This document shows, piece by piece, positions 1-19,017 of a stretch of DNA of 64,000 nucleotides. The notes beneath the pieces are model-generated. The model ran no database searches and was not told the origin of the DNA. It saw nothing but the letters and a program-made list of their open reading frames with translations. Source of the DNA: an uncultured Chloroflexia bacterium (lineage in GTDB: Bacteria > Chloroflexota > Limnocylindria > Limnocylindrales > CSP1-4); the NCBI GenBank assembly GCA_963713975.1, contig OY970218.1, positions 256,001 through 320,000 of the forward strand, given 5' to 3'. Position numbers and translations under genes: made by a program. Each line of letters opens with the position of its first letter. The first letter of the stretch is position 1.

Positions 1-2
1 CG

Positions 3-194
3 CGGGAGCGGATCCTGCACGTGGCGCAGAGCCTGTTCCACGACCACGTGCCCGCGAAGGAGCTGGGCGTGGCCACGGTCTGGATCGACCGCCGACACGG
101 GCGGGTGGGCGGGGGTGCAACCCCAACGGCCCAGGCGACGCCTGACGTCACCGCGACATCGATGGCGTCGTTCGCGGACATGGCGCTGGGCTGA
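3..194 (+). CDS. HAD-family hydrolase (haloacid dehalogenase type II-like), 3' end only
   Basis: Frame 3 reads RERILHVAQSLFHDHVPAKELGVATVWIDRR...TGA; HVAQSLFHD is the C-terminal motif of this HAD subfamily. Confidence 0.8.
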   Translation, partial: RERILHVAQSLFHDHVPAKELGVATVWIDRRHGRVGGGATPTAQATPDVTATSMASFADMALG

Positions 195-252
195 CGCCGC
201 CCCGCGCGGCGCGGAGCCGATCCGCGGCCGGCTGCTGCGGGTCAGCTGCGGG

Positions 253-522
253 TCAGCTCCCCGCGAGCAGGTCCACAACGCGCGGCTTGGCGCTCTCGGC
301 CAGGTGTGCGTCCAGCATCCGCGATGCGGCCTCGACATGGGGGCAGACGCGCGTCCCAGCGAAGAAGTCGCAGTCGCACGTCCAGCCACCCTCGCCCAGC
401 CCGATCACGTGGGTACCACCACCCGCATCGAAGGTTGCCGCAAGCCCGCCGATCTGAAGCCGGTCGTGCTCCAGGGCGTATCGATGTGCCTTCTCGGCCT
501 TCGTGACGATGGTGCTCTGCAT
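253..522 (-). CDS. Small SWIM zinc-finger protein (89 aa)
   Basis: MQSTIVTKAEKAHRYALE...WTCDCDFFAGTRVCPH: CxC-x7-CxH SWIM motif; start placed at ATG 522. Confidence 0.75.
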   Translation of the reverse strand: MQSTIVTKAEKAHRYALEHDRLQIGGLAATFDAGGGTHVIGLGEGGWTCDCDFFAGTRVCPHVEAASRMLDAHLAESAKPRVVDLLAGS

Positions 523-668
523 GCTGATTGGCCCTCGGCTCTGGTGGCGGCGGATCGGCGGGTGTCCCTCCATGGTCGTGCCGACGTCGCCGGTGGTCAA
601 GCCCGGCGGCCGTGCGACCGGCGGCGGGCCGTCCCGGCGAGGGCCGGGGTGCTGATGGCCTGCCGGAA

Positions 669-881
669 CGGTACGGTTGGCCCCTCACCCGCCGGTTGCC
701 GGGCCGTGATGCTACGCCGCGTCGATCCACCTTTCCCCGAGATGGAGCGACACCGGAGGCGCGGCCACGGGCAGGGCCACCGCTTCCTGCGGCATTCGTG
801 CCGTACGGACGAGCGGCAATTCCACGGAGCTCTTCCCCCGAGCCGTGGGATCGCCGCTCGACTCCCGTCCAGCTCGTACCG
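669..881 (-). ncRNA. Candidate structured RNA (multi-stem, two GGGG(G)AA-loop hairpins), family unassigned
   Basis: Closing helix CGGUACG/CGUACCG and several nested helices; G-U pairs form only on the minus strand; no convincing ORF. Confidence 0.5.
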
Positions 882-894
882 GGGTGCACCGCGG

Positions 895-911
895 ATACTC
901 CCCACGGGTAT
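895..911. promoter_or_regulatory. CsoR/RcnR-family operator-like site
   Basis: ATAC-TCCCCACGG-GTAT (ATAC-N9-GTAT with C/G tracts); minus-strand TTGACA at 930-925 nearby. Confidence 0.5.
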
Positions 912-962
912 TGAGTTGGGGGGTTGTCAAGCGGCGCGCGATGGCCTAGACTACTGGTCCAA

Positions 963-984
963 TGGCGTGTCATTTGACACGCCA
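963..984. promoter_or_regulatory. Perfect inverted repeat upstream of sigma gene
   Basis: TGGCGTGTCA-TT-TGACACGCCA; contains TTGACA at 974-979. Confidence 0.5.
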
Positions 985-1096
985 CTACGTGTGTCGGGTG
1001 GCGTGGATCCGGCACTCGCCCTGCCTGCGGGCCGGGCGGCTGGTCGCAAGTCCACGGACCGCACGGTCGGGTGCGGCACCGTTCAGCTGGAGCAAC

Positions 1097-2665
1097 GTGA
1101 TTTCAATCGATCCGTCTACCCCCGCCTCCGACAAGGAGGCCGAGCTCGCCGCGGCTGCCATCGAGCTGGACCCCGTGGCCGCCGCGCTCGAGGCCGATGC
1201 GCTGATCGCCGAAGATGCCAGCGCGGAGGTGCCTGCCGCCAAGGTGGCCGTCGCCAAGGCGCCGGTCGCCGCCCCCGTCAAGGTCGACGCCGAAGCAGAG
1301 CCTGAGCCCGTCCAGGCCGAGGTCCTCGACACGGACGACTCCGTCCGTCTCTACCTGCGGGAGATCGGTCGCGTGCCGCTCCTCACCGCGGAGGAGGAGG
1401 TCATCCTGGCCAAGGGCATGGAGCTGGGTGGCCAGGGCGAGACCGAGCCGTGGAAGGCCATCCTCGCCATCCATGAGTGGACGCTGCATCGCACCGAGCC
1501 CACCGCCCGCGCCAAGGACAAGCGCTACGTGCTGCCGTTCGAGGCGGCGTCGCACCGCATCGTCGAGACGGCGATCCGCTCCGACGACGCGCTCGACCTG
1601 CTGGTCACCGCTCCGCCGCTCGGCCTCGCCGACGCCCTCAAGAAGGTGGAGACGGACGGCCTCAAGGAGCGCCTCATCCATGCCGGCGACATGCGCTCCG
1701 TCTACAACGAGCGGCTGGACAGCGACACCTTCCTGGACCTGCTCAACTGGATCGAGGGCGAGCTGGGCCGGCCGAATGCCGAGATCCGCGCCAGCGCCGC
1801 GCTCAAGGACCTGCGCGAGTGGGCTCGCACCGAGATCGCCTACCCGGCGATCCAGCGCTACCTGGATGCGGGCAACGACGGCGAGACGCTCGACGAGCTC
1901 GGCCCGACGCTCAAGGCGCTGGCGAAGACCTCGCGGGACCACCTGACGTCGGCCAACCTGCGCCTCGTCGTGTCGATCGCCCGCAAGTACATCAACCAGG
2001 CCGGGATGGGCCTGCTGGACCTCGTCCAGGAGGGCAACGCCGGCCTGATCCGCGCCGTCGACAAGTTCGAGTACGAGCGCGGCTTCAAGTTCAGCACCTA
2101 CGCCACCTGGTGGATCCGCCAGGCGATCCAGCGCGGCCTCGCGGACCAGAGCCGGACCATCCGGATCCCGGTCCACATGGTCGAGACGATGGGGCGCGTC
2201 GCACGCGTCGTGCGGGAGCTGTCGACCCAGCTGGGCCGCGAGCCCACGAACACCGAGATCGCCGCGGCCCTTCCCGACGAGACGCCGGCGATGACGCCGC
2301 AGCGCGTCGAGGAGATCCGCAAGCTCGGCCGGGAGCCCGTCTCCCTGCAGTCACCGGTGGGGGACGAGGGCGACGCGGAGCTGGGCGAGCTGATCCCGGA
2401 CGAGGACGCGGTCTCCCCGCTGGACGTGGTCGCTGACCGCATGCGCCGGGAGCAGATCGAGCACGTGCTCGCCAGCCTCGACGGACGCGAGCAGCGCGTC
2501 CTGCGCCTCCGCTTCGGCCTCGACGACGGGCATGCCCGGACGCTCGAGGAGGTTGGTCGCGAGTTCGGCCTGACCCGTGAGCGCATCCGCCAGATCGAGG
2601 TCCAGGCGCTGCGCAAGCTGCGCCACCCCTCCCGCAGCCGCAAGCTCCGGGAGTTCGCCGCCTAG
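1097..2665 (+). CDS. RNA polymerase sigma-70 factor, RpoD/SigA-like (group 1/2)
   Basis: Region 1.2 [11 protein letters not shown], region 2 [21 protein letters not shown], region 4 [20 protein letters not shown]; GTG start after GGAG. Confidence 0.93.
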
Positions 2666-2687
2666 TCTTCTGTCCGAACAGACACAG

Positions 2688-2726
2688 AACGGCCGCGTCG
2701 CACGCCGACGCGGCCGTTTCGTTTGT
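2688..2726 (+). terminator. Intrinsic terminator hairpin between convergent genes
   Basis: AACGGCCGCGTCG-CACGC-CGACGCGGCCGTT followed by TCGTTTGT. Confidence 0.7.
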
Positions 2727-2739
2727 CCGGATCCCGGTA

Positions 2740-4731
2740 CTACCCGACGATCGCACCTGCGCAGTCCAGGGCCGACATGGCTGCCCCATCGACCGTCACG
2801 GGCGTGCAGGCCGAGGCCACCCAGGAGGTGACATCGGACGTGCCGGCCTGGCCACCGCGTGCCTCACCACCGGTCGAGACGAACCTGAGCTCGCCGGACG
2901 CGACCAGCGCCTGGAGCCGCTCCAGGGACAGCGCGTTGTCGCTGCCGCTGAATCCACCCATGGCCATGGCGGCCCGGCCCGTGGACAGCTCGACCTGACT
3001 GGCCGTGGTCGCATCGCTGACGGCCACGATCCACGTCGCCGCTCCCTGTTCCGCGATCAGGTACTCCAGCGTGGCGGCATCGAGGGAACCACCCTGGGCG
3101 CTGCCGGAGCCGCCATTGCCGGAGCTGCCGGCGGGGCCGTTGCCGGTGCCGTCGGCTGGCGTTTGGCCGATCGCGCCACGCGCGCCCGGAATGCCGTTCG
3201 CGGGGGCGCCGTCGATGGAGGTCGAGGTCGGACCCGCCGACGGGTCGCCGCCGGAGTAGGCCGTCGCCATGGTGTCGACCGCGTAGGCTGCCGGTCCCGC
3301 CAGGAGCATCGCGAGGGCAAGCCCCGCGGCCGCGGCCTGGACCCGGCCCCACCTTGCGGAGACCGGGAGCGCAAGGATCGGCAGCATGACTGCCGTCACA
3401 ACGATAGCGGCGAGCCCGAGCCCCGGCACGAAGCTTGGGGTCCGGTCGAGCAGCATCATGGCGACGCCGGCCGATCCCAGGATGACGATGCCCAGCACGA
3501 CGCCCACCCACGGGTACCGCTCGCGGGCCCGCCACATGGCCACCACGCCCCCGCCGACGAGCGCGCCGACCGCAGGTGCCATCGCCACGACGTAGTAGCT
3601 GTGGATCACGCCGGACATGAAGCTGAAGACGATCACGTGGACCGCCAGCCACCCGCCCCACATCAGGAACGCGGCGCGTGCGAGGTCCGTTCGTGGGGCA
3701 CGCAGGCGCGACGCGAGGCCGGCGGCTAGGCCAACCACGGACAGGGGCAGGAACCAGGCGATCTGGCCGCCCAGCTGGCTGTTGAACAGCCGCAGGATCC
3801 CGGGGGTGCCGGAGAAGCCACCGCCACCCCCACCGGACGCCGCGCCAGCCCCACCCTGGCCAAAGATCCGGCCAAGGCCGTCGTAGCCCAGGACGAGGTC
3901 CAGCGCGGAGTTGTTGGTGCTGCCGCCGACGTAGGCGCGCGACCCGGCCGGGATGAGCTCCATGGCAACGACCCACCACGAGGAGGCGACGATGACGGAG
4001 AATGCCGCGACCGTGAGGCCGGCGATCCGGCGACGGACCGAACCCGGAGCAGCGATCGCATAGACGATGGCGAACACCGGCAGCACGAGGAATGCCTGGA
4101 GGAGCTTGGTCTCGAACCCGAGACCGACGAGGATCCCTGCCATCGCGATCCAGCGAAGGCTGTTGTGCTCGAGCGCCCGCATGAACGCATACGCAGACCC
4201 GACGAGGAGCAGCGTTAGCAGAGCGTCCGGGTTGTTGTAGCGGAAGATCAGGACGGCTGCGGGGGTCAGGGCCGTGACGAGGCCGGCGATGATCGACGCC
4301 GGGGCGCCGAACGTCCGGCGCACCGTCGCCATCAACAGGGCCACCGTTCCGACACCCATGAGGGCCTGGGGCAGCAGGATGGAAGCGGGGCTGAGCCCGA
4401 AGATCCGCACCGAGAGCCCCATCACCATCGTCGCGAGCGGCGGCTTGTCCACCGTGATGAAGTTCGCGGGGTCGATCGAGCCCATGAACCAGGCGGACCA
4501 GCTCTGCGAGGCAGCCCACGCGGCGCCTGAGTAGTACACGTTGGCGTAGCCACTCACAGTGAGGTTGACGATGTACAGGAGCGAGGCCAGAGCGAGCACA
4601 GCGGCGGTCGCTGGGAGCACCCAGGTGGCCTCGCCTGCGCGGGCTCGGATCAGGAGCCGCTCGAGTCGCGCGGTCGGAGCCTGGGCGGGGCGGACACGCG
4701 GTTCGGCGCTGGGCGGGGCGAGGGTGGTCAT
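2740..4731 (-). CDS. Glycosyltransferase family 39 (ArnT/PMT-like, YkcB-like) membrane protein
   Basis: ANVYYS, FITVDKPP, RYNNPDALL, YVGGSTNNS, HSYY motifs; many TM segments; Gly-rich loops. Confidence 0.9.
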   Translation of the reverse strand: MTTLAPPSAEPRVRPAQAPTARLERLLIRARAGEATWVLPATAAVLALASLLYIVNLTVSGYANVYYSGAAWAASQSWSAWFMGSIDPANFITVDKPPLATMVMGLSVRIFGLSPASILLPQALMGVGTVALLMATVRRTFGAPASIIAGLVTALTPAAVLIFRYNNPDALLTLLLVGSAYAFMRALEHNSLRWIAMAGILVGLGFETKLLQAFLVLPVFAIVYAIAAPGSVRRRIAGLTVAAFSVIVASSWWVVAMELIPAGSRAYVGGSTNNSALDLVLGYDGLGRIFGQGGAGAASGGGGGGFSGTPGILRLFNSQLGGQIAWFLPLSVVGLAAGLASRLRAPRTDLARAAFLMWGGWLAVHVIVFSFMSGVIHSYYVVAMAPAVGALVGGGVVAMWRARERYPWVGVVLGIVILGSAGVAMMLLDRTPSFVPGLGLAAIVVTAVMLPILALPVSARWGRVQAAAAGLALAMLLAGPAAYAVDTMATAYSGGDPSAGPTSTSIDGAPANGIPGARGAIGQTPADGTGNGPAGSSGNGGSGSAQGGSLDAATLEYLIAEQGAATWIVAVSDATTASQVELSTGRAAMAMGGFSGSDNALSLERLQALVASGELRFVSTGGEARGGQAGTSDVTSWVASACTPVTVDGAAMSALDCAGAIVG

Positions 4732-5240
4732 GACTGGCTCCTGGTCGAAGGCTGGACGACGTGGGGTGAGGGCCGTCGGTCGGTCCGGATCCACGCCCTG
4801 AGGAGGACGAAACGCGCCACCGTTGCAAGGGTGTTCGCGACGATGAGGACCGCCAGCTCCACCATCCGCCCGGCGCCCGGGGCGACTGCGTCCAGGAATC
4901 GCACGGAGAGGGTGGTGATGGCCAGGGCGACGCCCAGTGCGGCGAGGCCGCCGGCCTGGTCGCGGAGCATCGAGCGGCGGCCGCGAACACCGAAGGTGAG
5001 GCGCCGGTTCGCGGCCGTGTTGCCGATCGCGGTGACGACCAGTGCGGCGGCGTTGGAGGCCGTCGCGCCGAGGACGGTACGCAGCGCCAGGTACAGGACC
5101 GCGTAGGCGACCGTGCTGACGATCCCGATCGCCGCGAACGAGATCACCTCGCGCCCGAGGCCCGACCGCAGGATCGCGGTGGCAATGGCGACCGGTGCAG
5201 CCGCCGTCATTCGGAGCCGGAGTTGGGTGGGGGCAGTCAT
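4728..5240 (-). CDS. GtrA-family flippase-like protein
   Basis: SFAAIGIVSTVAY...NTAANRRLTF...ANTLATVARF; four TM; stop overlaps the GT39 start. Confidence 0.82.
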   Translation of the reverse strand: MTAPTQLRLRMTAAAPVAIATAILRSGLGREVISFAAIGIVSTVAYAVLYLALRTVLGATASNAAALVVTAIGNTAANRRLTFGVRGRRSMLRDQAGGLAALGVALAITTLSVRFLDAVAPGAGRMVELAVLIVANTLATVARFVLLRAWIRTDRRPSPHVVQPSTRSQS

Positions 5241-5461
5241 CGGGAGCCGCCCGTGGACGCGCGGCCGGGACCGGCGGCGCCGGCTGTCAAGGGCTGGTGA
5301 GGAGACGTCGGGCAACGACCCTGGGTCGGGTCCGGGGAGGGTGTCGTATCCATGCCCGGAGTCTCGGGGTGGGCCCCTTTCGGACCGGTTACACGCAGGC
5401 GTTGCTGGGCCGTAGAGTCCCCCACATGACCGGCCCCGACGCCGGACAGCCCCGGTCCGCC

Positions 5462-6706
5462 TCAGCCCGGCGAGGCGTGGCTCCAGGTCACGGCGAAGCG
5501 AGCTCCACCGGAGGGCGACCTGCCAACCGTCCAGCGGCCGGCCGTCGCGCGCACGATCGTCTCGCCGATCGCCAGGCCCAGTCCCGCTCCACCGGCGTCT
5601 CCGGCTGTGGCCAGCGAGCGGTGGAACCGGTCGAAGATGCGAGCCTCGTCCTCCGGGGCGATCCCGGGGCCCGAGTCGTCCACGGTGACGGTAGCCCGCG
5701 AGCCGTCGAGGCTGACGGTGAGGTCCACGGTCCCCTCCTCCGGGGCGTACTTGCAGGCGTTGTCCAGCAGCACGCCGACGAGGCGGTCGAGCAGATCCGG
5801 GGGCGCCGTCACCAGCACCGGGCCGGCGGGGACGTGGATCCCGAGCCGAAGGCGCCGGGTCTCGGCGACGGCGGCGAAACGGTCGGCGGCGTGGGTCGCC
5901 AGCACGCCAAGGTCCACCGGCCCGGTCGTCGTGGACGGGGCGGCGGCATCGAAGCGCGCCAGCCAGAGCATGTCCTCCAGGAGCCGGCGCATCCGCTTCG
6001 ACTCGCGGTCGATGCGCCCGAAGGCACCGCGGTACCAGTCCGTGTCGCGGTCCTGGGCCAGCGCGAGGCTGGTATGGGCCTCGATGACCGAGAGTGGCGT
6101 GCGCAGCTCGTGCGAGGCATCGGCCGTGAACTCGAGCTGGCGGCGGCGTGCCGCCTCGATCGGCTCGGCGACCCGCCGACCGATCAGCACGGCACCGGCG
6201 AACACGAATCCAAGCAGGAAGGGCGCGATCAGCAGGACCCCGACGACGATGGTCCGCTGCGCATCCCCGACCTGCTCCGCCGACTGGGCAACCACCAGCC
6301 GCCCGTCGGCGACGTCTCCGCCGGCCACCCGCATCGCGGTGCCGTCGATGGTCGCGGTCACCGGCGTCGTCACGTCGACGAGATCGTCCGGCAGCGCCGG
6401 CGTGGTGCTGGCCGCCACGACCGTGCCGTCGTCCATGACGATCCACACCAGGAATGGTGCCCCATAGGGGCGCCCGGGGTCCCGGCCCGGCGATGGTAGC
6501 GTTCCGTCCGGCTGATCGCCCGGAGTGCCGTCCGGAGGCACTCGGAGCATCGCCTCGGTCAGGCGCTGGTCGACCTGGGCTGTCAAGTCCCTCGTGGCGT
6601 AGGCGATGACGCCCGCCGCGATCGCGAAGTACACGACCGCCACCACGAGGGTCGCCGAGAGCGCCACCCGGATGGACTGGCGGCGGACCCCGGGTGCGCC
6701 GCTCAT
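5462..6706 (-). CDS. Sensor histidine kinase
   Basis: Two TM; ADASHELRTP H-box; DNACKY, DSGPGI, GAGLGL boxes. Confidence 0.93.
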   Translation of the reverse strand: MSGAPGVRRQSIRVALSATLVVAVVYFAIAAGVIAYATRDLTAQVDQRLTEAMLRVPPDGTPGDQPDGTLPSPGRDPGRPYGAPFLVWIVMDDGTVVAASTTPALPDDLVDVTTPVTATIDGTAMRVAGGDVADGRLVVAQSAEQVGDAQRTIVVGVLLIAPFLLGFVFAGAVLIGRRVAEPIEAARRRQLEFTADASHELRTPLSVIEAHTSLALAQDRDTDWYRGAFGRIDRESKRMRRLLEDMLWLARFDAAAPSTTTGPVDLGVLATHAADRFAAVAETRRLRLGIHVPAGPVLVTAPPDLLDRLVGVLLDNACKYAPEEGTVDLTVSLDGSRATVTVDDSGPGIAPEDEARIFDRFHRSLATAGDAGGAGLGLAIGETIVRATAGRWTVGRSPSGGARFAVTWSHASPG

Positions 6707-7377
6707 CGTCCCTCCGGCTCCACGCGGTAGCCGGCACCGCGGACCGTGACGATCCGGATGCCCGCATCGGGCAGCTTGGCACGGAGGCGGCTGAGCTGGA
6801 CATCGATGGCGTTGGAGCCCAGGGGATCCGTCTCGTCCGCCCAGGCATGCTCCGCGATGGCCTTCCGGTCGACGACCGCCGGCATCCGGCGCAGCAGGAG
6901 CTCCAGGATCCGGTACTCGGTGGCGGTGAGCGACCGCTCCAGGCCATCGACGGTGACGAGGCGGGTCACCGGGTCCAGGGCCAGCTTGCCGACGCGCAGG
7001 ACCGGAGCGTCCACCCCGCGTGGACGGCGCTGGAGGGCCCGCACCCTGGCCAGCAGCTCCCCGAAGTCAAAGGGCTTGACGAGGTAGTCATCGGCGCCGC
7101 TGTCCAGGCCCCGGATCCGGTCCGCGGGCGTGTCCCGCGCCGTCAGCATCAGGAGCCCGGTCGGCCGGTCATGCCTCCGCGCCCAGGCCACGACGTCGAC
7201 CCCCTCGGCGCCCGGCATCCGCCAGTCGATCACGGCGACGTCGTACTCGTACCACCTCAGCTGGTCAATGGCATCGTCGCCACGGGCCACGGCATCGACG
7301 TGGTAGCCGGCATCGGCGAGGCCGAGGACCAGGACCTCACGGAGGCCCTCGTCATCCTCGGCCACCAGGATCCTCAT
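6703..7377 (-). CDS. OmpR-family response regulator
   Basis: MRILVAEDD, LTARD, GADDYLVKPF, TVRGAGY. Confidence 0.95.
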   Translation of the reverse strand: MRILVAEDDEGLREVLVLGLADAGYHVDAVARGDDAIDQLRWYEYDVAVIDWRMPGAEGVDVVAWARRHDRPTGLLMLTARDTPADRIRGLDSGADDYLVKPFDFGELLARVRALQRRPRGVDAPVLRVGKLALDPVTRLVTVDGLERSLTATEYRILELLLRRMPAVVDRKAIAEHAWADETDPLGSNAIDVQLSRLRAKLPDAGIRIVTVRGAGYRVEPEGR

Positions 7378-7747
7378 GCCGTCAGCCTCCGTTGCGGCTC
7401 GTCAGTCGGGCAGCTTCTGCCGTGGTGATCGTGCCACGGGGGATCATGCGCCACGCGGGGTGCGGTGCGTCGACCGTCACGCACGCCAGGTCGGTCACGA
7501 GCATCGTGGTCGAGCATCGGTGGGCCTCCTTGGGCAAGAGGTGCGGGCCCGGGCCGGGGGGAGGGCGCCGGGCCCGCGGTGGCGTTCAGGGACCAGTCTC
7601 GCCGCCGGACCCTTGCGATCCGGTTACGCGACGCCAGCCGCGCCGTGGTCCCGGGGCGTCAGCGCAGCGTCCACCGGTCCGCGTCGGCCTCCGGTCGGGG
7701 CCATCCGGCAGATGCGGGACGGCGCGCCGGGGTCGATCCTCGGCGAC

Positions 7748-10039
7748 GTGGGTACTGCGTCAGCGACTCCCGCAGCTACGGCGCCAACCGGCACGGTGGT
7801 TCACTCGCCGCTCAGGCGAGAGGGACCGGCGAAGCTGACCGGCGCCGCCCGCTTCACGGACGACATGGTCGTTTCCGGGGCGTGGTACGGCGTGACCGTG
7901 CGCTCCACGGAGCCCCACGCCAGGCTGCTGGGCATCGACCTCGATCCGGGCTTCGACTGGTCGGCGGTCGTGGTGGTCACGGCCGCGGACATCCCCGGCG
8001 ACAACGTGGTGACCCTGCTCGTCGACGACCAGCCCGCCCTCGTCGACGGTGAGATCCGGCACGTGGCGGAGCCCGTGGTCCTGGTCGCCGCCCCGGACCC
8101 GATCCTGGCCCGGGCTGCCCGCGACGCGGTCCACCTTCGCACCGAGCCCCTGCTCGCGGTCCTGGATCCATTGGCGGCAACCGAGTTCTGCAAGGTGTTC
8201 GAGATCGCCAGGGGAGACCTCGACGCCGGGCTCGCGAGTGCCGATCTCGTCCTGGAGGGCACGTACAGGACCGGCTACCAGGAACAGCTCTACATCGAGC
8301 CGCAGGCGATGATCGCGATCCCCCGCCCCGACGGCGGCCTGACCATCCACGGCTCGATGCAGTGCCCGTACTACGTGCACAAGGCGGTCGTGCGGGCGCT
8401 CGGCCTCGATCGCGATCGGGTCGCCATCGTGCAGGAGGAGACGGGAGGCGGCTTCGGCGGCAAGGAGGAGTACCCGTCCATCCTGGCGATCCATGCCGCC
8501 CTGCTCGCCCGCAAGGCGGGGCGCCCCGTGCGCATGGTGTATGAGCGGCACGAGGACCTCGCCGCGACCACCAAGCGACATCCGTCGATCATCCGCCACC
8601 GGACCGGCGTGACCCGTGACGGCCGGCTGGTGGCCCAGGACATCGAGATCGTCCTCGACGCGGGCGCCTACGCAACCGTGTCACCGGTCGTCCTGTCCCG
8701 CGGCGGCATCCACTGCGCGGGACCGTATGCCTGCCCCAACACACGGATCCGCGCCCGCGCGGCCGTGACCAACACGCCGCCCAACGGCGCCTTCCGGGGG
8801 TTCGGCGCGCCACAGGCCGCGTTCGCCGTCGAGACGCACCTGGACCGCCTCGCGGCCGCAGCGGGCATCTCGCCGCTCGAGATCCGGCGGCGCAATGCCT
8901 ACCGGCTCGGTGACGCCACGGCCACGGGCCAGGTCCTGCGCGAGAGCGTGGGGGCACTGGAGACGCTCGAGGCGGCGGCGGAGGCCTCCGGGTTCGAACG
9001 CGTCCGACGCGACCACGATGCGCGGCGCGAGGCGCGGCGCGAGGCGCGGTCCCGGCGAGGTGACGGGAACGCCGGGGCGCGCCTGGACGATCGGTCGGCC
9101 TCGGGGATCGGGATCGCGCTTGGCTGGCATGGCGCCGGGTTCACCGGCTCCGGGGAGGCGAGGCTCGCGAGCACCGCCTCGGTCGAGGTCGACGGCGGCG
9201 GGCAGATCCGGGCCTTCTCCGCGAACACGGAGATGGGCCAGGGATCGCGAACGGTGCTCGCCCAGGTGGTTGCCGAGGCGCTGGGCGTGGACCCCGACGA
9301 GGTCGACATCGCCCCCCAGGACACCGCGCTCGTCGCGGACAGCGGCCCGACCGTGGCGTCACGTACGACGATGGTGGTCGGCGCGTTGCTGGCGACCGCA
9401 TCCACGCACCTGCGTTCAGACGTGGAGGCCGTGACCGGCCGTCCGTTCGCGGCATCCTACCGCTCGTTCGCCCGTGAGCACGGTCCCCTGCGCGCCACGG
9501 AGCGGTTCCACGGCTTCCCGGGGATCGAGTGGGACGACGAGGCCTACCGGGGTGACGCCTACCCTGCCTACAGTTGGGCGTGCGCGGTGGCGGCCGTGGA
9601 CGTGGACCTCGACACGGGCGAGGTGCGGGTCCGGTCGGTCGTCCAGGCCGCCGACGCCGGCCGTATCGTCAACCGGGTCCTGGCCGAGGGCCAGGTCGAG
9701 GGCGGCACGCTGCAGGCCGTGGGCTACGCCACGCTCGAGGAGCTGCAGGCTGCGGACGGCCGCTACCGGAATGACCGGCTCTCGACCTACCTGATCCCGA
9801 CCGCGCTCGACGCGCCCCGGATCGAGACCCTCTTCGTGGGACAGCCGTTCGGTGCCGTCCCGCACGGGGCCAAGGGCCTGGGCGAGCTGCCGATGGACGT
9901 GCCCGCCCCCGCGGTGATCGCGGCGATCCACGATGCGACCGGGGCATGGATCCCGGACCTGCCGGCGACACCCGAGAAGATCCTCGCCGCGCTCTTGGCA
10001 CTGGATATCGAGGCGGGAGCGGAGGAGGCGGCCCGATGA
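7748..10039 (+). CDS. Xanthine dehydrogenase-family molybdopterin-binding subunit
   Basis: GGGFGGK, AFRGFG, EMGQG, SGPTVASR, GQVEGG, AKGLGE; start uncertain (7712 or 7748). Confidence 0.9.
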   Translation: MGTASATPAATAPTGTVVHSPLRREGPAKLTGAARFTDDMVVSGAWYGVTVRSTEPHARLLGIDLDPGFDWSAVVVVTAADIPGDNVVTLLVDDQPALVDGEIRHVAEPVVLVAAPDPILARAARDAVHLRTEPLLAVLDPLAATEFCKVFEIARGDLDAGLASADLVLEGTYRTGYQEQLYIEPQAMIAIPRPDGGLTIHGSMQCPYYVHKAVVRALGLDRDRVAIVQEETGGGFGGKEEYPSILAIHAALLARKAGRPVRMVYERHEDLAATTKRHPSIIRHRTGVTRDGRLVAQDIEIVLDAGAYATVSPVVLSRGGIHCAGPYACPNTRIRARAAVTNTPPNGAFRGFGAPQAAFAVETHLDRLAAAAGISPLEIRRRNAYRLGDATATGQVLRESVGALETLEAAAEASGFERVRRDHDARREARREARSRRGDGNAGARLDDRSASGIGIALGWHGAGFTGSGEARLASTASVEVDGGGQIRAFSANTEMGQGSRTVLAQVVAEALGVDPDEVDIAPQDTALVADSGPTVASRTTMVVGALLATASTHLRSDVEAVTGRPFAASYRSFAREHGPLRATERFHGFPGIEWDDEAYRGDAYPAYSWACAVAAVDVDLDTGEVRVRSVVQAADAGRIVNRVLAEGQVEGGTLQAVGYATLEELQAADGRYRNDRLSTYLIPTALDAPRIETLFVGQPFGAVPHGAKGLGELPMDVPAPAVIAAIHDATGAWIPDLPATPEKILAALLALDIEAGAEEAAR
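9020..9049 (+). repeat. In-frame 12-bp tandem repeat (2.5 copies, ARRE)
   Basis: GCGCGGCGCGAG x2 + GCGCGG inside the xdh large-subunit gene. Confidence 0.6.
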
Positions 10040-11505
10040 TCGAGTCGTCGCCCCTCGCCGCCCCTCCGATCCGGTTCCGGGTCAACGGCCGCGCGGTCGA
10101 GATCACGGACGAGCCAGGGGGCCGGCGCCTGCTCGACGTCCTGCGACTCGACCTGGGCCTTACGGGGGCGAAGGAGGGATGCGGCGAGGGCGAGTGCGGC
10201 GCCTGCTCCGTGCTGCTCGACGGCGCCGTCGTCAACAGCTGCCTGCTGCCGGTGGGCCAGGCCGACGGTCACGAGGTCGTCACCGTGGAGGGGCTGGCCG
10301 ACGGCGACCGCCTGTCGCCCCTCCAGCAGTCGTTCCTCGAGACGGGTGGGACGCAGTGCGGGATGTGCACCCCGGGGTTGCTCGTGGCCGCCCATGCGCT
10401 CCTCGAATTGGGACGACCCGCCGGCGAGCCCGACGTCCGCGAGGCGATCGCGGGCAACCTCTGCCGCTGCACTGGCTACACCAAGGTGGTCGAGGCGATC
10501 GAGGCGGCGGGGGCGGTCCACCGGCCGGCAAGGGTCGCGGGCGTCCAGGACGCACCGGTCGCGGGCGAGCTGCCGGCATCGCCGGCCGTTCCCGCAACGG
10601 TGCGACGCCACCACGGGTCCATCCGGTCCGATCCGCGCCTGGTCCGCCCCACCTCCCTGCCCGATGCGGTGGCGCGGCTCACCGCCGATCCGGCGCTCCG
10701 CCCGTTCGCCGGTGGGACGGACCTGATGGTCGAGCTGGCCCACGGATCGGCATCGCCGGGACGCCCGCTGCTGGACCTGTGGGAGCTCGACGAGCTGCGC
10801 GGGATCGAGGTCATCCACGATGAGCTGGCCCTGGGCGCATTGACCACCTGGACGGAGCTCCTCGACTCCACCGTCGCGCGCCACGCGCTGCCGGTGCTCG
10901 GCGAGGCGGCCGCGACGGTCGGTGCCGTCCAGGTCCGGAACCGGGGCACCATCGGCGGCAACTGCGTCACCGCCTCCCCCGCGGGCGATCTCCTGCCGGT
11001 GCTGCTTGCCACGGACGCGAGCCTTGAGGTGGCGGGGCCAGGCGGGACCCGGACGATCCGGGCGGATGCCTTCTGGACGGGCTACCGCACGACCGCCCTC
11101 GCCCCCGGGGAGCTGCTGGTGGCCGTGCGGGTCCCGCTGGTCCCCGGCCGAAGGGTGCGCTACCGGAAGGTCGGCACGCGTCGCGCGCTGGCGATCGCCA
11201 AGGTATCGATCGCCCTCGCCTGGCAGGACGGGGCGACGGCGGCAGGAACCGGCGGCACCGGCCGCGGACGCTGGCGGGGCGTCCGGGTCGCTCTGGGTTC
11301 AGTCGCGCCCACGCCCATTCGCGTGCTCCGGACCGAGGCGGTGCTGGAAGGGCGGCTGCCGGATCTCGCGATCGCGAACGAGGCCGCCGCCACGGTCCGG
11401 GCCGAGATCACGCCGATCGACGACATCCGCTCGACCGCCGACTACCGCCGCGAGGTCACGGGCCGGATCCTGCGCCGCATCGTGCTCGACGGCGCCCAGG
11501 GCTGA
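10036..11505 (+). CDS. Fused 2x[2Fe-2S] + FAD-binding subunit of a xanthine dehydrogenase-family enzyme
   Basis: GCGEGECGAC, QCGMC, NLCRCTGY, then AGGTDL, RNRGTIGGN, DDIRSTADYR; GGAGGAGG RBS; overlaps upstream stop. Confidence 0.9.
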   Translation: MIESSPLAAPPIRFRVNGRAVEITDEPGGRRLLDVLRLDLGLTGAKEGCGEGECGACSVLLDGAVVNSCLLPVGQADGHEVVTVEGLADGDRLSPLQQSFLETGGTQCGMCTPGLLVAAHALLELGRPAGEPDVREAIAGNLCRCTGYTKVVEAIEAAGAVHRPARVAGVQDAPVAGELPASPAVPATVRRHHGSIRSDPRLVRPTSLPDAVARLTADPALRPFAGGTDLMVELAHGSASPGRPLLDLWELDELRGIEVIHDELALGALTTWTELLDSTVARHALPVLGEAAATVGAVQVRNRGTIGGNCVTASPAGDLLPVLLATDASLEVAGPGGTRTIRADAFWTGYRTTALAPGELLVAVRVPLVPGRRVRYRKVGTRRALAIAKVSIALAWQDGATAAGTGGTGRGRWRGVRVALGSVAPTPIRVLRTEAVLEGRLPDLAIANEAAATVRAEITPIDDIRSTADYRREVTGRILRRIVLDGAQG

Positions 11506-11542
11506 CCGGCCGGCAACGCGACCGCGAGCCGGCGGACATGGT

Positions 11543-12049
11543 TCAGATCGCGGGCGCGTCCAGCCCCAGCGTCGCCGCCAGCTCCTGTACCGCTGCCCGC
11601 TCCGCATCGTTGACCAGGACGCCGCCGCTGCCGAGGAACCCCTGGTCCTCCATGCCCGCCTGCGCCACCGCCACCGCGATCCCGAGCAGCCACGACCTGT
11701 ACGCCGAGGTCTCATCGGGGGTAGCGCCGGCCTCTACCGCCGCCATGGCCGATCGCACCGTCGCGACCGCCCTGTCGCGCGCATCGGGGGCCGTCACGAT
11801 CCTGGCGTAGTCGGGGAACGCGCCACCGGACGCCGCGTGGTCCTGGAGGGTCACGATGATCGACGAGAGCAGCGGATGGGCGACCTGGCCGCGGGCGCTG
11901 TCGAGCACGTAGGCGGCCATCGCGAAGCCCTCGCTGGCCGTCTCCTCCTTGCGACCAGGGCTCGCCGTCGAGATCAGCACGGCCGCCGCCTCCAGGCCCT
12001 GAAGGATCAGCCGCCGGTCATCGGGTTCGAAGTCGCCGAGCAGGGTCAT
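11543..12049 (-). CDS. Hypothetical helical protein
   Basis: 168-aa ORF with GGAGG RBS; VAQAGMEDQGFLGSGGVLVNDAE C-terminal motif. Confidence 0.7.
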   Translation of the reverse strand: MTLLGDFEPDDRRLILQGLEAAAVLISTASPGRKEETASEGFAMAAYVLDSARGQVAHPLLSSIIVTLQDHAASGGAFPDYARIVTAPDARDRAVATVRSAMAAVEAGATPDETSAYRSWLLGIAVAVAQAGMEDQGFLGSGGVLVNDAERAAVQELAATLGLDAPAI

Positions 12050-12149
12050 GTCGCATCCTCCGTGCACCGGAATGGTTGACGACGGTGCACGATGTCGACC
12101 TTACCGCCATTCGACCCCGCGAGGCGTGGAAATGTCCGTGGTGAGCCGA

Positions 12150-13298
12150 TCAGGCCGTCGATGGGGACCCGGGCGCCCACAGGATCGCGGCGGGCCGACA
12201 GCGGGTGAGGCACAGGCCACAGCGCTCGCATCGCTCCTGGTCCAGCTCGGCCTTGCCGTTCACGACGTGGATGGCGTCGTAGACGCACGAGCCCTCGCAC
12301 AGCGCGCAGCCGTTGCACAGGTCGAGATCCACCATCGGCGGGCCGGGAACCTGGGCGGCAACGGGCTCGCGCAGGGCCATGCCCCGCACGTCGTCGAGAC
12401 CGGCGTATCCGTGGCCGGCGAGCCAGGCGGCCGCCTCTCCCGCGATCTTCCCGAACACGCCGCGACCGCGGAGGATTGCCGCGGTGCACACCTGCACGGC
12501 CGACGCGCCCGCCATCGCCATCTCGATCACGTCCGTGCCGCGGCTGATCCCGCCACAGCCGATGACGGGCAGGTCCACGGCGCGGGCCACATCGAACACG
12601 GAGCGCACGGCAAGGGGCTTGAGGGCCGGACCGGAGAGCCAGCCAGAGCCGTCGCCGCCACCCAGGCGCGGCCGGCCGCTCTCGATGTCGACGGCCAGGC
12701 AGGGGCCAAACGAGTTGATGGCGACGATCGCGTCCGCACCGGCGCGTGCCGCCTGCTCGGCAGCCCGTGACATCTGGCGTCCGAGCGGGCTGAGCTTGAC
12801 CCACACGGGCACGTCCACGGCGTCCTTGGCCGCCCGGATCGCGTCGACCATCGGGCCCGCGTCCTCGCCGATGTAGTGCGTCGAGAGCTCCAGGGCATCC
12901 GCGAACGGCCGGACGCGGGGCGCGAGCCACGCGATGTCCGCGGCGGAATAGCCCAGGCTCACGATCAGCGGCAGGTCCGGCGTCCTCGCCTGCGGCAGCT
13001 CGTACTCCAGCCACTGCTCCGGCGGGAGCTCGGACCACAGCTCGGCGTTGAGGAACCCATGAGCGATCTCGGCCATGTTAGGCGTGGGGACGACGGCCGC
13101 GGAGCGCGAGATGGTCTTGCTGACCAGGCCCCCGGCGCCACCCGCGGCGCAGGCCAGCATGGCGGCCCCGTCACGCACCGGCGGCCCCGCCGCCGTGAGG
13201 ACCGGGTTGCGGAACCGGATGCCACAGACCTCGACGGAGGCGTCGACGGGCGGTGCCGTCGCGGCGGCAGCCGAGGCGGGCGTTGCGCGCCGGGTCAC
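12150..13298 (-). CDS. Dihydroorotate/dihydropyrimidine dehydrogenase (PreA)-like FMN enzyme with C-terminal 2x[4Fe-4S] domain
   Basis: NPVLTAAGP, SKTIS, VKLSP, AINS, LSGPALKP, GCGGI; CNGCALCEGSC and CERCGLCLTRC; GTG start overlaps the ssnA stop. Confidence 0.85.
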   Translation of the reverse strand: MTRRATPASAAAATAPPVDASVEVCGIRFRNPVLTAAGPPVRDGAAMLACAAGGAGGLVSKTISRSAAVVPTPNMAEIAHGFLNAELWSELPPEQWLEYELPQARTPDLPLIVSLGYSAADIAWLAPRVRPFADALELSTHYIGEDAGPMVDAIRAAKDAVDVPVWVKLSPLGRQMSRAAEQAARAGADAIVAINSFGPCLAVDIESGRPRLGGGDGSGWLSGPALKPLAVRSVFDVARAVDLPVIGCGGISRGTDVIEMAMAGASAVQVCTAAILRGRGVFGKIAGEAAAWLAGHGYAGLDDVRGMALREPVAAQVPGPPMVDLDLCNGCALCEGSCVYDAIHVVNGKAELDQERCERCGLCLTRCRPAAILWAPGSPSTA

Positions 13299-14671
13299 CG
13301 AAGCGGCGCCGTGCGCGGATCGAACGGGTGCTCGCCGATCGTGGCGAGGCGGCCCCACAAGCGTGTCGCCTGGGCACGAGCGGCGTCGAGGAGCCAGTCC
13401 TCGCCTACGAACCGGAGGCGGTGGCCAAGGACGGCGACCTCGCCTGCAACGACCACGTCGCGCACGTTGCGCGCCGAGAGGCCGAACACCCAGTGGCCGG
13501 GGAAGGTGTCCGCATCGGCCGGCGTGGGGACCGCGTGATCCAGGACGACGAGGTCCGCCGGCGCGCCCGCCTCGATCCGTCCGAGCAGGGGCTCGCCGAA
13601 GGCACGGCCCGCGACCCGTGCCGACTCCGCCAGGCGCGCCAGCACCCAGCGCGGATCGGGCGCCACCCCCTCCTCGCGCGCCGCGAGCCAGGCGGTCCGG
13701 GACTCCTCGAACATGTCCGCGCCGATGCCGTCCGTGCCGAGGGCGACCCGGGACCCCGGGAGTGCACGGGACCCCAGGAGCGCCGGTCGCCCCACGGCGT
13801 TGTTCATGTTGGACCGGATGTTGTGCACCACGGTCGCCCCGGCTTCGCGCACGGCCTCGGCCTCCCGCTCGTCGAGGTGCACCCCGTGGGCGAGCAGCGA
13901 CAGCTCGTCCAGGGCACCTGCCCGGGCGAGTCGTTCGATGACGGGGATCCCGAAGCGGGCCCGGCAGTCCGCCTGGTCCACGGCGTCCTCGGCAACGTGC
14001 ACGTGGAGGCCGGTCCCCGTGTGACCGGCGGCCTCGACGCAGGCAGCCAGGGTCGCGTCCGAGAGCGTGAACGAGGCGTGCGCCCCGACCATCGAGCGGG
14101 CGAGCGGCAGCGCCCCACCCGCCGCATGCTCGGCGAAGCGGCGGTTCTCGCGCAGGCCTGCCGCGGAGCACTCGGGTCCGTCCCGATCCGACACCTCGTA
14201 CGCGAGGATGCTGCGGATCCCGGTGGCCGCGAGCGACTCCGCGATGATGTCGAGCGAGCCGGCGATGGCATGCGGGGAGGCGTGATGGTCGACCACGGTG
14301 GTCGTGCCGGCCAGCAGGGCCTCCATGCCGCCGACGAGCGCGGAGGCGCGGATCGATCCCTCGTCCAGCCCGCGGTCCAGCCGCCACCAGACGCGTCGCA
14401 GGATGTCGACGAAGTCCCGGGGAGGCTCCAGGCCGTAGGGCATCCCCCGGGCCAGCGCCGCGTACAGGTGGGTGTGGGCGCAGACGTTGCCCGGGATCAC
14501 GACGCAGCCCCGTGCGTCGATGCGGTTCACGCCGGGATCATCGTCCCCGGACGCGTCCGCCACGGGGCTCACCTCGAGGACGCGGCCGTCGCCCACGAGG
14601 ACGTCGGCGACCTCGACCCGCACCGGGTCCAGGGACGTGACCACCGTGCCGCCGGTTACGAGCAGGTTCAT
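13295..14671 (-). CDS. ssnA: SsnA-like amidohydrolase
   Basis: PGNVCAHTHLY, ILRRVWWRLD, DHHASP, YEVSDRDG, GAHASFT, HVAE, RSNMNNAVG. Confidence 0.85.
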   Translation of the reverse strand: MNLLVTGGTVVTSLDPVRVEVADVLVGDGRVLEVSPVADASGDDDPGVNRIDARGCVVIPGNVCAHTHLYAALARGMPYGLEPPRDFVDILRRVWWRLDRGLDEGSIRASALVGGMEALLAGTTTVVDHHASPHAIAGSLDIIAESLAATGIRSILAYEVSDRDGPECSAAGLRENRRFAEHAAGGALPLARSMVGAHASFTLSDATLAACVEAAGHTGTGLHVHVAEDAVDQADCRARFGIPVIERLARAGALDELSLLAHGVHLDEREAEAVREAGATVVHNIRSNMNNAVGRPALLGSRALPGSRVALGTDGIGADMFEESRTAWLAAREEGVAPDPRWVLARLAESARVAGRAFGEPLLGRIEAGAPADLVVLDHAVPTPADADTFPGHWVFGLSARNVRDVVVAGEVAVLGHRLRFVGEDWLLDAARAQATRLWGRLATIGEHPFDPRTAPLR

Positions 14672-17307: not shown

Positions 17308-17504
17308 GGGACCCCTCGCGGCCGGTCCCCGCTGGACCGTCTGGCCCTAGCCGGGAGCGCTCCGATGTCGAATCGTAGGGACGACTCGAGGGACCCCGCG
17401 CGTGCCAAGTGTCCCGACTCCGCACGAGGCCTGTCCCGAGCCGTCGGGCGACCGACCCACCGTCACGGCTGAAGCCGGGCCGTCGCCAACAGCAGGAGGT
17501 CGTG

Positions 17505-19001
17505 ATGCGCCGACTGGGACTTGAACGGGACGTCGTGGACCCGGTCGTCCGGGACCGTGCTGCCGATCGCTGCCGGTCCCTGGGCGTGGTCCTGCCGACC
17601 TTCGCCCAGCTGGCCGATCCCGACCTCGTCCCCAGCGCCGTGGCCGAGCGGCTTGCCGCCGTCGATCCTGATGCGCCCGATCCGCTCAACCTGTACCGCG
17701 TCCACTGGTTCAATGACGGCACGCGGGCCGCCCGGACACACGTCCCCGACCACCTGGTCCTGCCCGAGGCGCTGACCGGCGTCGTCTCGCCGATCGTGAT
17801 CGCGCTGGGCGACCGGTTCCCGATGATCCGGTCGCACAAGGTCATCGCGGCCTACGGCTGCCTCGCGCCGCGGATCGTGACCGGCCAGTTCGATCCCGCG
17901 ACGGAGCGGGCGGTCTGGCCGTCCACCGGCAACTACTGCCGGGGCGGCGCGGCGATCTCCCGGATCATGGGCTGCCGCGGCGTGGCGGTCCTCCCCGAGG
18001 GAATGAGCCGCGAGCGGTTCGAGTGGCTCGAGCGGTGGGTTGCCGACCCGTCGGACATCATCCGGACGCCGGGCACGGAGAGCAACGTCAAGGAGATCTA
18101 CGACCGCTGCGCGGAGCTCGACCGCGAGCCGGACACGGTGATCTTCAACCAGTTCAGCGAGTTCGGGAACCACGTCGCCCACTACGCCCTCACTGGCCGT
18201 GCCCTGGCGCACGTGTTCGAGGCGGTCCGGGCCCGGCAGCCGAGCGTCCGCGCCGCCGCGTTCGTGTCGGCGACCGGGTCCGCCGGGACCATCGGGGCCG
18301 GCGACTACCTCAAGGAACGGCTCGGCTCGCGGACGGTGGCCGTCGAGGCACTGGAGTGCCCGACCATGCTCGCCAACGGCTTCGGCGAGCACAACATCCA
18401 GGGGATCGGCGACAAGCACATCCCGCTCATCCACAACGTGATGGCGACCGACCTCGTGGCGGCCGTCTCTGACCGGGCCACCGATGCGCTCCTAGTGCTG
18501 TTCAACACGGCCGTCGGTCGCGAGTACCTCGTGCGGCGACGCGGCGTGCCCGCCGAGATCGTGAGCGCCCTCGGGTCGCTCGGCGTGTCCTCGATCTGCA
18601 ACGTGCTGGCCGCGATCAAGGTGGCCCGCCACCAGCACCTCGGACCCGACGACGTGATCCTGACGGTCGCCACGGACGGCGCGGAGATGTACGCGACCGA
18701 GCTGGAGCGGATCGCCGCCCGCGACTTCCCGGGCGGGTTCGACGAGGTGGCGGCCGGGGAGACCTTCGGGGCCTACCTCAACGCCGTCGCGGAGGACCAC
18801 GTCCTGGAGGCGACCCGCGCCGATCGCGAGCGGATCTTCAACCTCGGCTACTACACCTGGGTCGAACAGCAGGGGGTGCCGATCGACGAGTTCGAGGCCC
18901 GCCGCCAACCGGACTTCTGGACGACGATGCGCGGGATCGTCGACCGCTGGGACCAACTGATCGACGAGTTCAATGCGCACGTCGCCGGTGGACCGGCCTA
19001 G
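17505..19001 (+). CDS. PLP-dependent fold-type II enzyme (cysteine synthase/beta-family like)
   Basis: SHKV PLP lysine, [22 protein letters not shown]; AGGAGG RBS. Confidence 0.85.
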
Positions 19002-19017
19002 TCGAGGAGGTGGCCGC

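Follow-up and report, generated by a model that had tools for sequence, protein, structure and literature searches.

A conserved folded RNA gene without a known family, between a zinc-finger gene and a sigma factor gene of an uncultured Chloroflexota bacterium

The interval between a SWIM-like zinc-finger gene and a sigma factor gene of an uncultured Chloroflexota bacterium holds a real, conserved and folded RNA gene of about 275 nt that belongs to no known family. All positions refer to the window, which is the whole 64-kb stretch of DNA that was analysed. The RNA is probably transcribed from the plus strand of the window, as judged by sequence comparison, and the favoured reading, held with about even confidence and by analogy with the 6C and RoxS RNAs, is that of an undescribed, lineage-restricted, trans-acting small RNA (sRNA) of ~275 nt (plus strand, window ~646-920) that would act via C-rich loops. 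Comparison among relatives supports the conservation of the element, its covariation, its absence from Rfam, its narrow distribution and its separability from the neighbouring gene; we infer, in addition, the strand, the terminator, base pairing in trans and a tie to the SWIM-like protein.

The element is present in a single copy in the 3.62-Mb source genome, and its homologues are found among close relatives. A BLASTN search of 40 relatives returned six clear homologues, and a covariance model (R1), built from 7 sequences and used for the search of relatives, matched in 10 of 70 genomes of the same genus (118-218 bits) and in 12 of 13 metagenome loci. These genus genomes and the 12 metagenome contigs provide 20 distinct homologous sequences. 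A pattern scan of all GTDB species representatives gave 92 stretches, 80 of which were fetched; 7 were real, all of them from already-known genomes of the same genus, and the rest were mostly chance matches. When 151 genomes drawn from across the class were searched with the covariance model, only the source genome (G000), its congener G024 and two partial matches of 24 bits were recovered. The two partial matches are not accepted as homologues, as each is without 80-100 model positions; the first is antisense between two ORFs and the other is inside an apparent ORF. Among the genomes searched, the RNA family is thus confined to part of one genus. The alignment of homologues places the conserved block at ~646-920, so that the extent of 669-881 given by an earlier, sequence-only reading of the same DNA lies inside the block but is too narrow. 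A decayed copy of the RNA is noted in genome G069 (L027:1300-1430, 24.9 bits). It retains the 5' arm and loop of the long hairpin, with a degenerate 3' arm and a deleted central domain, and shows an RNA undergoing loss while the neighbouring gene persists.

No Rfam family matches the whole 64-kb window at gathering score, and relaxed searches of window 500-1150 (E up to 10) and of 12 homologous loci (E up to 5 or 1) place only chance-level miRNA-type hairpin matches on the element. The sequence-only reading suggested 'a new sRNA', which is supported by the conserved, covarying structure together with the lack of an Rfam match. A literature search found no full-text paper joining Limnocylindria with noncoding RNA. 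That the RNA is new to print rests on the Rfam 15 blank and on this blank for noncoding RNA of Limnocylindria. Among public sequencing runs, no RNA run is listed with the element, and the sole listed run is of DNA (0.05 of words).

Taken alone, the copy in the window folds weakly better than its shuffled controls on either strand, and the shuffle check proposed earlier for the element yields little: the minus strand reaches -124.2 kcal/mol (z -1.95; 8 of 200 shuffles as good) and the plus strand -115.8 kcal/mol (z -1.66; 11 of 200). Thus, the case for structure rests on comparison. In a MAFFT alignment of 20 homologues that was not fitted to the model, 94.2% of 919 cells pair and 14 of 46 pairs are changed on both sides, values that 0 of 500 shuffles reach; slid controls in this alignment pair in 31-45% of cells. 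Pairing figures of the model-fitted alignment are similar. The covariation expected of a structured RNA is seen in three hairpins of the sequence-only reading, which are kept with compensatory changes across the 20 distinct homologues: the long hairpin (P2'), the small hairpin first written as CGGCA-CGAA-UGCCG on the minus strand (P3') and the hairpin with the second purine-rich loop (P5'). Hairpin B' is a fourth, outside the coordinates first proposed (Table 1).

Table 1. Features of the element and its flanks (window positions; strand of the RNA hairpins as favoured here, conditionally).
Feature	Position	Strand	Details
SWIM-like zinc-finger gene (CxC...CxH), 89 aa	253..522	-	beside 20/22 RNA loci
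Promoter-like motif TTGACC-N17-GACCAT of the SWIM-like gene	572..600	-	17-nt spacer in 20/21 loci
Hairpin B'	646..686 (arms 646-656 / 676-686)	+	11 pairs; 86.8% paired; 3 changed on both sides
Variable segment	687..720	+	from the alignment; length and sequence vary; local CCGG-UUG-CCGG hairpin at 692-702 in the window
Hairpin P5', C-rich apical loop	721..751	+	10 pairs; 92.0% paired; 5 changed on both sides
G-rich strand CCACGGGCAGGG (CCCUGCCCGUGG on minus)	765..776	+	12 nt; identical in 22/22 aligned copies
Small hairpin P3', CGGCA-UUCG-UGCCG	790..803	+	97.0% paired
Long hairpin P2', 17-18 bp	810..860 (arms 810-827 / 843-860)	+	two helices, 98.5% and 100% paired; 5 pairs changed on both sides
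Third hairpin AUACUC-CCCAC-GGGUAU with UUGAGUU tail	893..919 (stem-loop 893-912)	+	pairing read by eye
Promoter-like site TTGTCA-N17-TAGACT of the sigma-70 family gene	924..952	+	consensus scan

Within this framework, hairpin B' encloses a small variable hairpin and has one pair that switches from C-G (9 sequences) to G-C (6 sequences). The only nearly invariant part of the variable segment is a GAU(C/G)CU motif (708-713). The loop of P5' is CUUUCCCCG in the window and UUCCUCCCCU in most relatives, and 4 of the 5 pairs of P3' are changed on both sides in the model-fitted alignment. The apical element of P2' (CUC-UCCCC-GAG) is invariant, as is the G-rich strand, which has no established pairing partner among the long-range helices tested, none of which exceeded controls. 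The invariance of these two segments, which carries limited weight in a family that is small and composed of closely related members, suggests from sequence a specific tertiary fold or protein site beyond the needs of a simple seed-pairing sRNA. The third hairpin is found only in the subgroup of the window (3 sequences: L017, L155 and L018) and is missing from RNA-less loci that otherwise share the same intergenic region.

Other helices of the sequence-only reading fare less well. Its GGUGGCC/GGCCAACC and CCGUGG/UCACGG helices are paired in 68.9% and 74.2% of cells, respectively, without exceeding controls, and its closing helix CGGUACG/CGUACCG (P1) is weak, with 80.9% of cells paired and 1 pair changed on both sides. 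Neither P1 nor helix P4, UGGC(C/U)/GGCCA, is relied on here, the latter as it never varies on both sides and so provides no covariation. The 9-bp direct repeat described as flanking the element is present at 644-652 and 879-887, but its frequency is that of chance (5 occurrences of the 9-mer in the window vs 2.87 expected, with at least 5 in 17 of 100 shuffles), and the 9-mer is not repeated around the copies of the closest relatives.

Inverted repeats may also act in DNA, for example as protein-binding palindromes of a divergent promoter region, in which case no functional RNA would be made. Consistent with this possibility, the consensus scan near the element is blank for an RNA promoter on both strands, and the element resides between outward-facing promoters. 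The pairs that change base identity yet keep pairing (14 of the 46) speak against it, as do an asymmetry of G·U over A·C that is expected of RNA and not of DNA and the unusual nature of an operator of 275 bp with multiple hairpins. An action in DNA alone is exceedingly improbable.

The asymmetry also bears on which strand is transcribed. The sequence-only reading took G-U pairing to be possible only on the minus strand; family-wide, the reverse is found, since the conserved helices read on the minus strand have 63 A·C cells vs 12 G·U. The five helices of P2, P3, P5 and B pair canonically in 95.1% of cells on the plus strand compared to 89.6% on the minus strand. As alignment cells are not independent, events were also counted on a tree: parsimony on a FastTree of the alignment gives, for the plus strand, 30 changes into G·U vs 12 into A·C (binomial p ~0.008), a ratio of only 2.5 to 1. 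The strand call is a statistical one, and part of the asymmetry could stem from strand-biased mutation. Where covarying pairs pass through intermediates, almost all of these pair only on the plus strand, as exemplified by pair 107-127, which passes from C-G to U-A via five U·G cells. RNAalifold has a slight preference for the plus strand (-164.3 vs -157.1 on minus). Three independent hints, drawn from loop and tail sequences, agree with the plus strand. First, a clade-specific inserted hairpin has GCGA, GUGA or GAGA (GNRA) loops in 5/5 sequences, on the plus strand only. Second, the P3 loops of the 20 sequences are, on the plus strand, UUCG (5), UCCG (2), CUCG (5), CCCG (5) and other (3), the four named being members of stable tetraloop classes. 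Third, a U-rich tail follows P2. The likeness of the P5' loop to that of a 6C-like RNA ~1.25 kb away on the plus strand also favours this orientation.

A minus-strand RNA, either an sRNA or a long leader co-oriented with the SWIM-like gene, is unlikely but has several observations in its favour. On that strand, a protein or a C-rich RNA would be the ligand of two G-rich loops (GGGGAGA and AGGGGAGG) and of the invariant C-rich strand CCCUGCCCGUGG, and the RNA would be co-oriented with, and 133-202 nt upstream of, the adjoining SWIM-like gene in 19/22 loci. The copy of the window has one G·U in P5 when read on the minus strand and folds 8 kcal/mol better there; P4 pairs in every cell (100%), 6 of them being G·U on minus; and the covarying helices of the model-fitted alignment still pair in 92.4% of cells on minus. 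Single-sequence minimum free energy is, however, uninformative as a test of strand, the plus strand being more stable in 10 of 20 copies, and the invariant P4 adds no covariation. Against the minus strand stand the wobble statistics, the minus-strand loops (UCNC and CGRR), which include no recognised motif compared to GNRA/YYCG on plus, and the lack of a terminator-like tail after the structure on minus. A leader is further at odds with the conserved promoter-like motif between RNA and gene, and with the occurrence of the two apart.

The protein encoded by the SWIM-like gene is sub-threshold for PF04434 in the window (E 0.12, 12.4 bits, cut-off 19.6); 37 of 75 aligned family members match PF04434 at E up to 0.01, and residues C48, C50, C59 and H61 are invariant or nearly so in the family alignment. 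The AlphaFold model of the protein is confident (pLDDT 87.4), and Foldseek found no match to it in the PDB at E up to 0.001 (best E 1.7). The genus has two SWIM-like paralogues, one of ~35% identity that is matched in 63/70 genomes and one of 71-100% identity in 15/70. Of the 15 genomes with the 71-100% paralogue, 10 carry the RNA and an 11th has the decayed remnant; none of the 55 genomes without this paralogue has a copy. The widespread 35%-identity paralogue is, in the source genome, a protein of 92 aa (L161:2266-2544 (-), equal to G000:C1:440265-440543) encoded directly downstream of a large gene that by eye is phosphohexomutase-like; the covariance model detects no RNA of this family at that locus. 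The small SWIM-like domain is also found in tandem two-domain proteins of 166-182 aa that match the query in two stretches (P0063, P0064, P0067, P0068, P0070, P0072, P0073 and others), a hint from sequence that the 89-aa protein, with its single domain, may function as a dimer.

Gene and RNA are neighbours that can be parted. The SWIM-like gene is 133-202 nt from the RNA in the 19 loci noted above and is preceded by its own promoter-like motif, which scored below the threshold of the consensus scan and is assigned a promoter function from its conservation. In G079, 1.35 kb with opposite-strand ORFs lies between the RNA and the gene, which has retained its motif. The metagenome contig L154 has no gene within 435 nt of the RNA, and four genomes have kept gene and motif with unrelated sequence at the place of the RNA. 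Thus, with a promoter-like motif of the gene's own and the separability of the two, the RNA is not an obligatory leader of the SWIM-like gene. The cis-regulatory leader suggested by the sequence-only reading is not supported: the promoter-like motif intervenes between RNA and gene in 20/21 loci, RNA and gene each occur alone, and the RNA probably runs opposite to the gene. With the RNA on the plus strand, the two would be back-to-back (divergent), and they probably share a function or regulation, neither requiring the other in cis. A stronger tie, in which the RNA and the duplicated 89-aa SWIM-like protein form a dedicated two-part module, is distinctly doubtful; in such a module the protein would be the transcription regulator of the sRNA, or an RNA-binding partner of the P2' apical element and the G-rich strand.

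The ends of the RNA, on the favoured plus strand, are marked unequally. At the start, candidate promoters picked by eye (TACGNN ~22 nt ahead of helix B', a clade-specific GGAA-N17-CGCAAT and a GCCGAT motif) were rejected, as their spacing is not conserved. At the end, at least 5 U are found in the 10 nt after P2' on the plus strand in 12/20 sequences, and P2' with its U-rich tail is a terminator candidate in most relatives. The tail of the window's own P2' has 2 U in 10 nt, and the third hairpin with UUGAGUU is the corresponding candidate for this copy. The P2' tail is similar in style to the terminator of the sigma gene, a 12-bp stem followed by UUCGUUUGU.

The element may also be read as a plus-strand riboswitch or a protein- or RNA-controlled attenuator, since attenuators usually consist of a structured domain with a strong hairpin and U-rich tail directly after it. 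In most loci a gene for a CoA-binding-domain protein is downstream on the plus strand; the structured domain would respond to a signal, and P2' and its U tail would control read-through into this gene. Such a cis-acting leader is nonetheless improbable. The downstream gene differs in the subgroup of the window, where it encodes a sigma factor and has its own TTGTCA-N17-TAGACT site, and CCTGTC...TAG(C/G)CT promoter-like motifs are found between the RNA and the CoA-binding gene, ~20 to 130 nt from the RNA. The stem and loop of the terminator are the most conserved part of the element, which is unusual for an expression platform, and no conserved anti-terminator pairing was found. The RNA looks like a separate unit between outward-facing promoters.

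Several features of the downstream side are of separate note. TTGTCA-N17-TAGACT is the sole sigma-70-type match in window 1-20000 and is conserved in relatives. Directly downstream of it is a 10-bp perfect inverted repeat (TGGCGTGTCA..TGACACGCCA, window 963-984 (+)), which is conserved in relatives with the same arrangement and may serve the sigma gene as a leader hairpin or as an operator. The sigma-70 family protein (962-2665, +) has a long N-terminal extension, with ~170 residues between region 1.2 (126-158 of the listed ORF) and region 2 (330-399); its best NCBIfam matches are RpoD models, all below cut-offs. Most relatives have a CoA-binding-domain protein in place of the sigma factor. 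In L012, L013, L015 and other relatives, a conserved ACAGGGCCGATCGG motif is found together with GCCTA at 20-130 nt from the RNA and in some copies forms a 12-bp palindrome, GGCCGATCGGCC; the pair may be read as the -35/-10-like region, with a possible operator, of the divergent CoA-binding-domain gene. An ATCGGC core is also within the spacer of the promoter-like motif of the SWIM-like gene.

As a trans-acting sRNA on the plus strand, the transcript would be a row of hairpins (B', the variable hairpin, P5', P3' and the long P2') with the invariant G-rich strand CCACGGGCAGGG between the C-loop hairpins P5' and P2'. It would end at P2' and its U-rich tail or, in the subgroup of the window, at an extra C-loop hairpin (CCCAC loop) followed by UUGAGUU. 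Apical loops are C-rich on this strand (UCUCCCC in P2' and UUCCUCCCCU in P5'), and UUCCUCCCCU includes CCUCC, the anti-Shine-Dalgarno core. Thus, if the RNA is on the plus strand, the twin G-rich loops of the sequence-only reading are really C-rich loops, and the C-rich sRNA proposed as their partner is replaced by G-rich (Shine-Dalgarno-like) targets. The C-rich loops are proposed to pair in trans with the G-rich ribosome-binding regions of mRNAs, and this pairing would block translation, by analogy with 6C and RoxS/RsaE-type sRNAs. The invariant G-rich strand and the invariant P2' apical element fall outside the seed-pairing model and may form a protein site or a tertiary contact; the SWIM-like protein would be the most evident candidate for a partner or regulator.

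RoxS/RsaE-type sRNAs of Firmicutes have several unpaired C-rich motifs, one of them in or near the terminator hairpin, that are thought to pair with Shine-Dalgarno regions. The element, read on the plus strand, likewise has several unpaired C-rich motifs, including one in the candidate terminator hairpin; phylum, length and architecture differ, and no such Rfam family was matched. A second likeness is to 6C, which is regarded as actinobacterial. In the genome of the window, a 6C-like RNA (RF01066) is found ~1.25 kb from the element on the same strand, at G000:C1:255336-255400 (+), that is, 600-664 nt before window position 1 and between an aldehyde dehydrogenase gene and a HAD gene. Further 6C-like copies are noted at L013:54-112, L014:138-198, L015:244-302, L016:3039-3099(-) and L020:2950-3009(-), and in the homologous loci such matches are ~0.9-1.3 kb from the element. 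Scores of the 6C-like RNA in the window genome and five relatives' loci are 33-44 bits, below the gathering score of 47; a match in another genus of the family, of 47.4 bits, is above the cut-off. The second hairpin of the 6C-like RNA is long, with a CCUUCCCCCCAGG loop, and a conserved GTAGAC-type -10-like motif is upstream.

The element itself is not matched by the 6C model (RF01066, at least 47 bits) at E up to 10 in window 500-1150 or at E up to 5 or 1 in 12 loci. Both RNAs have GC-rich hairpins with cytosine-rich apical loops, in the element only if the RNA is on the plus strand, and the P5' loop UUCCUCCCCU resembles the UUCCCCCC loop of the 6C-like RNA. By contrast, 6C has ~75 nt and two hairpins, and the element has ~275 nt, at least five hairpins and an invariant G-rich strand. 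6C is reported to bind mRNA targets through its C-rich loops (Mai et al. 2019, as listed in the references of PMC8628891).

The neighbourhood also calls to mind RNA polymerase-binding regulators such as 6S RNA or the actinobacterial Ms1, which are of the same 200-300 nt length class. The element adjoins a sigma-70 family gene, and a 6C-like RNA and a HAD hydrolase gene are nearby, loosely like the M. tuberculosis locus, in which 6C/B11 (rv3660c-rv3661) and Ms1/MTS2823 (rv3661-rv3662c) flank one gene (PMC8628891, as tabulated in its Table 1). 6S RNA (RF00013) was detected neither in the window nor in the genome, a blank of little weight, as the control search found the family in only 5/14 reference genomes. 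Ms1 homologues are known to escape sequence searches, and the genes on either side of Ms1 encode a HAD-IB hydrolase and an oxidoreductase (PMC9130861). The HAD gene near the element is instead a haloacid dehalogenase of type II/IA (TIGR01428, 139.5 bits), not IB; the SWIM-like gene stands between it and the RNA, most relatives have a different gene in its place, and gene order and orientation are unlike those of M. tuberculosis. The supported helices of the element are local hairpins in a row and not long closing helices around a central bubble, as in the rod of 6S RNA. A presence in 10/70 genomes of one genus is, moreover, an unlikely spread for a housekeeping regulator. Polymerase binding is thus highly improbable, and the C-loop sRNA acting in trans remains the favoured reading. 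In the manner of its discovery, the element may be compared to the raiA motif, which is likewise an orphan motif with a conserved gene neighbour that was found from conservation and covariation; it differs from raiA-type motifs in its absence from Rfam, its confinement to part of one Chloroflexota genus and its probably divergent orientation to the conserved neighbour.

To our knowledge, almost nothing has been reported of regulatory RNAs in uncultured soil Chloroflexota. The locus provides a well-defined, covariation-backed RNA family suitable for Rfam-type curation, although its narrow spread, in part of one genus, limits its general importance. It is also a worked example of how wobble statistics taken across a family can overturn the strand assigned from a single sequence. 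C-rich-loop sRNAs, including a 6C-like RNA, may exist outside Actinobacteria and Firmicutes, and a Chloroflexota relative of 6C would merit separate study. We know of no role for small bacterial SWIM proteins; if the two-part module were true, these proteins would gain one in RNA-based regulation, and the tight co-occurrence of the RNA with the duplicated SWIM-like gene is a testable handle on this protein family of unknown function.
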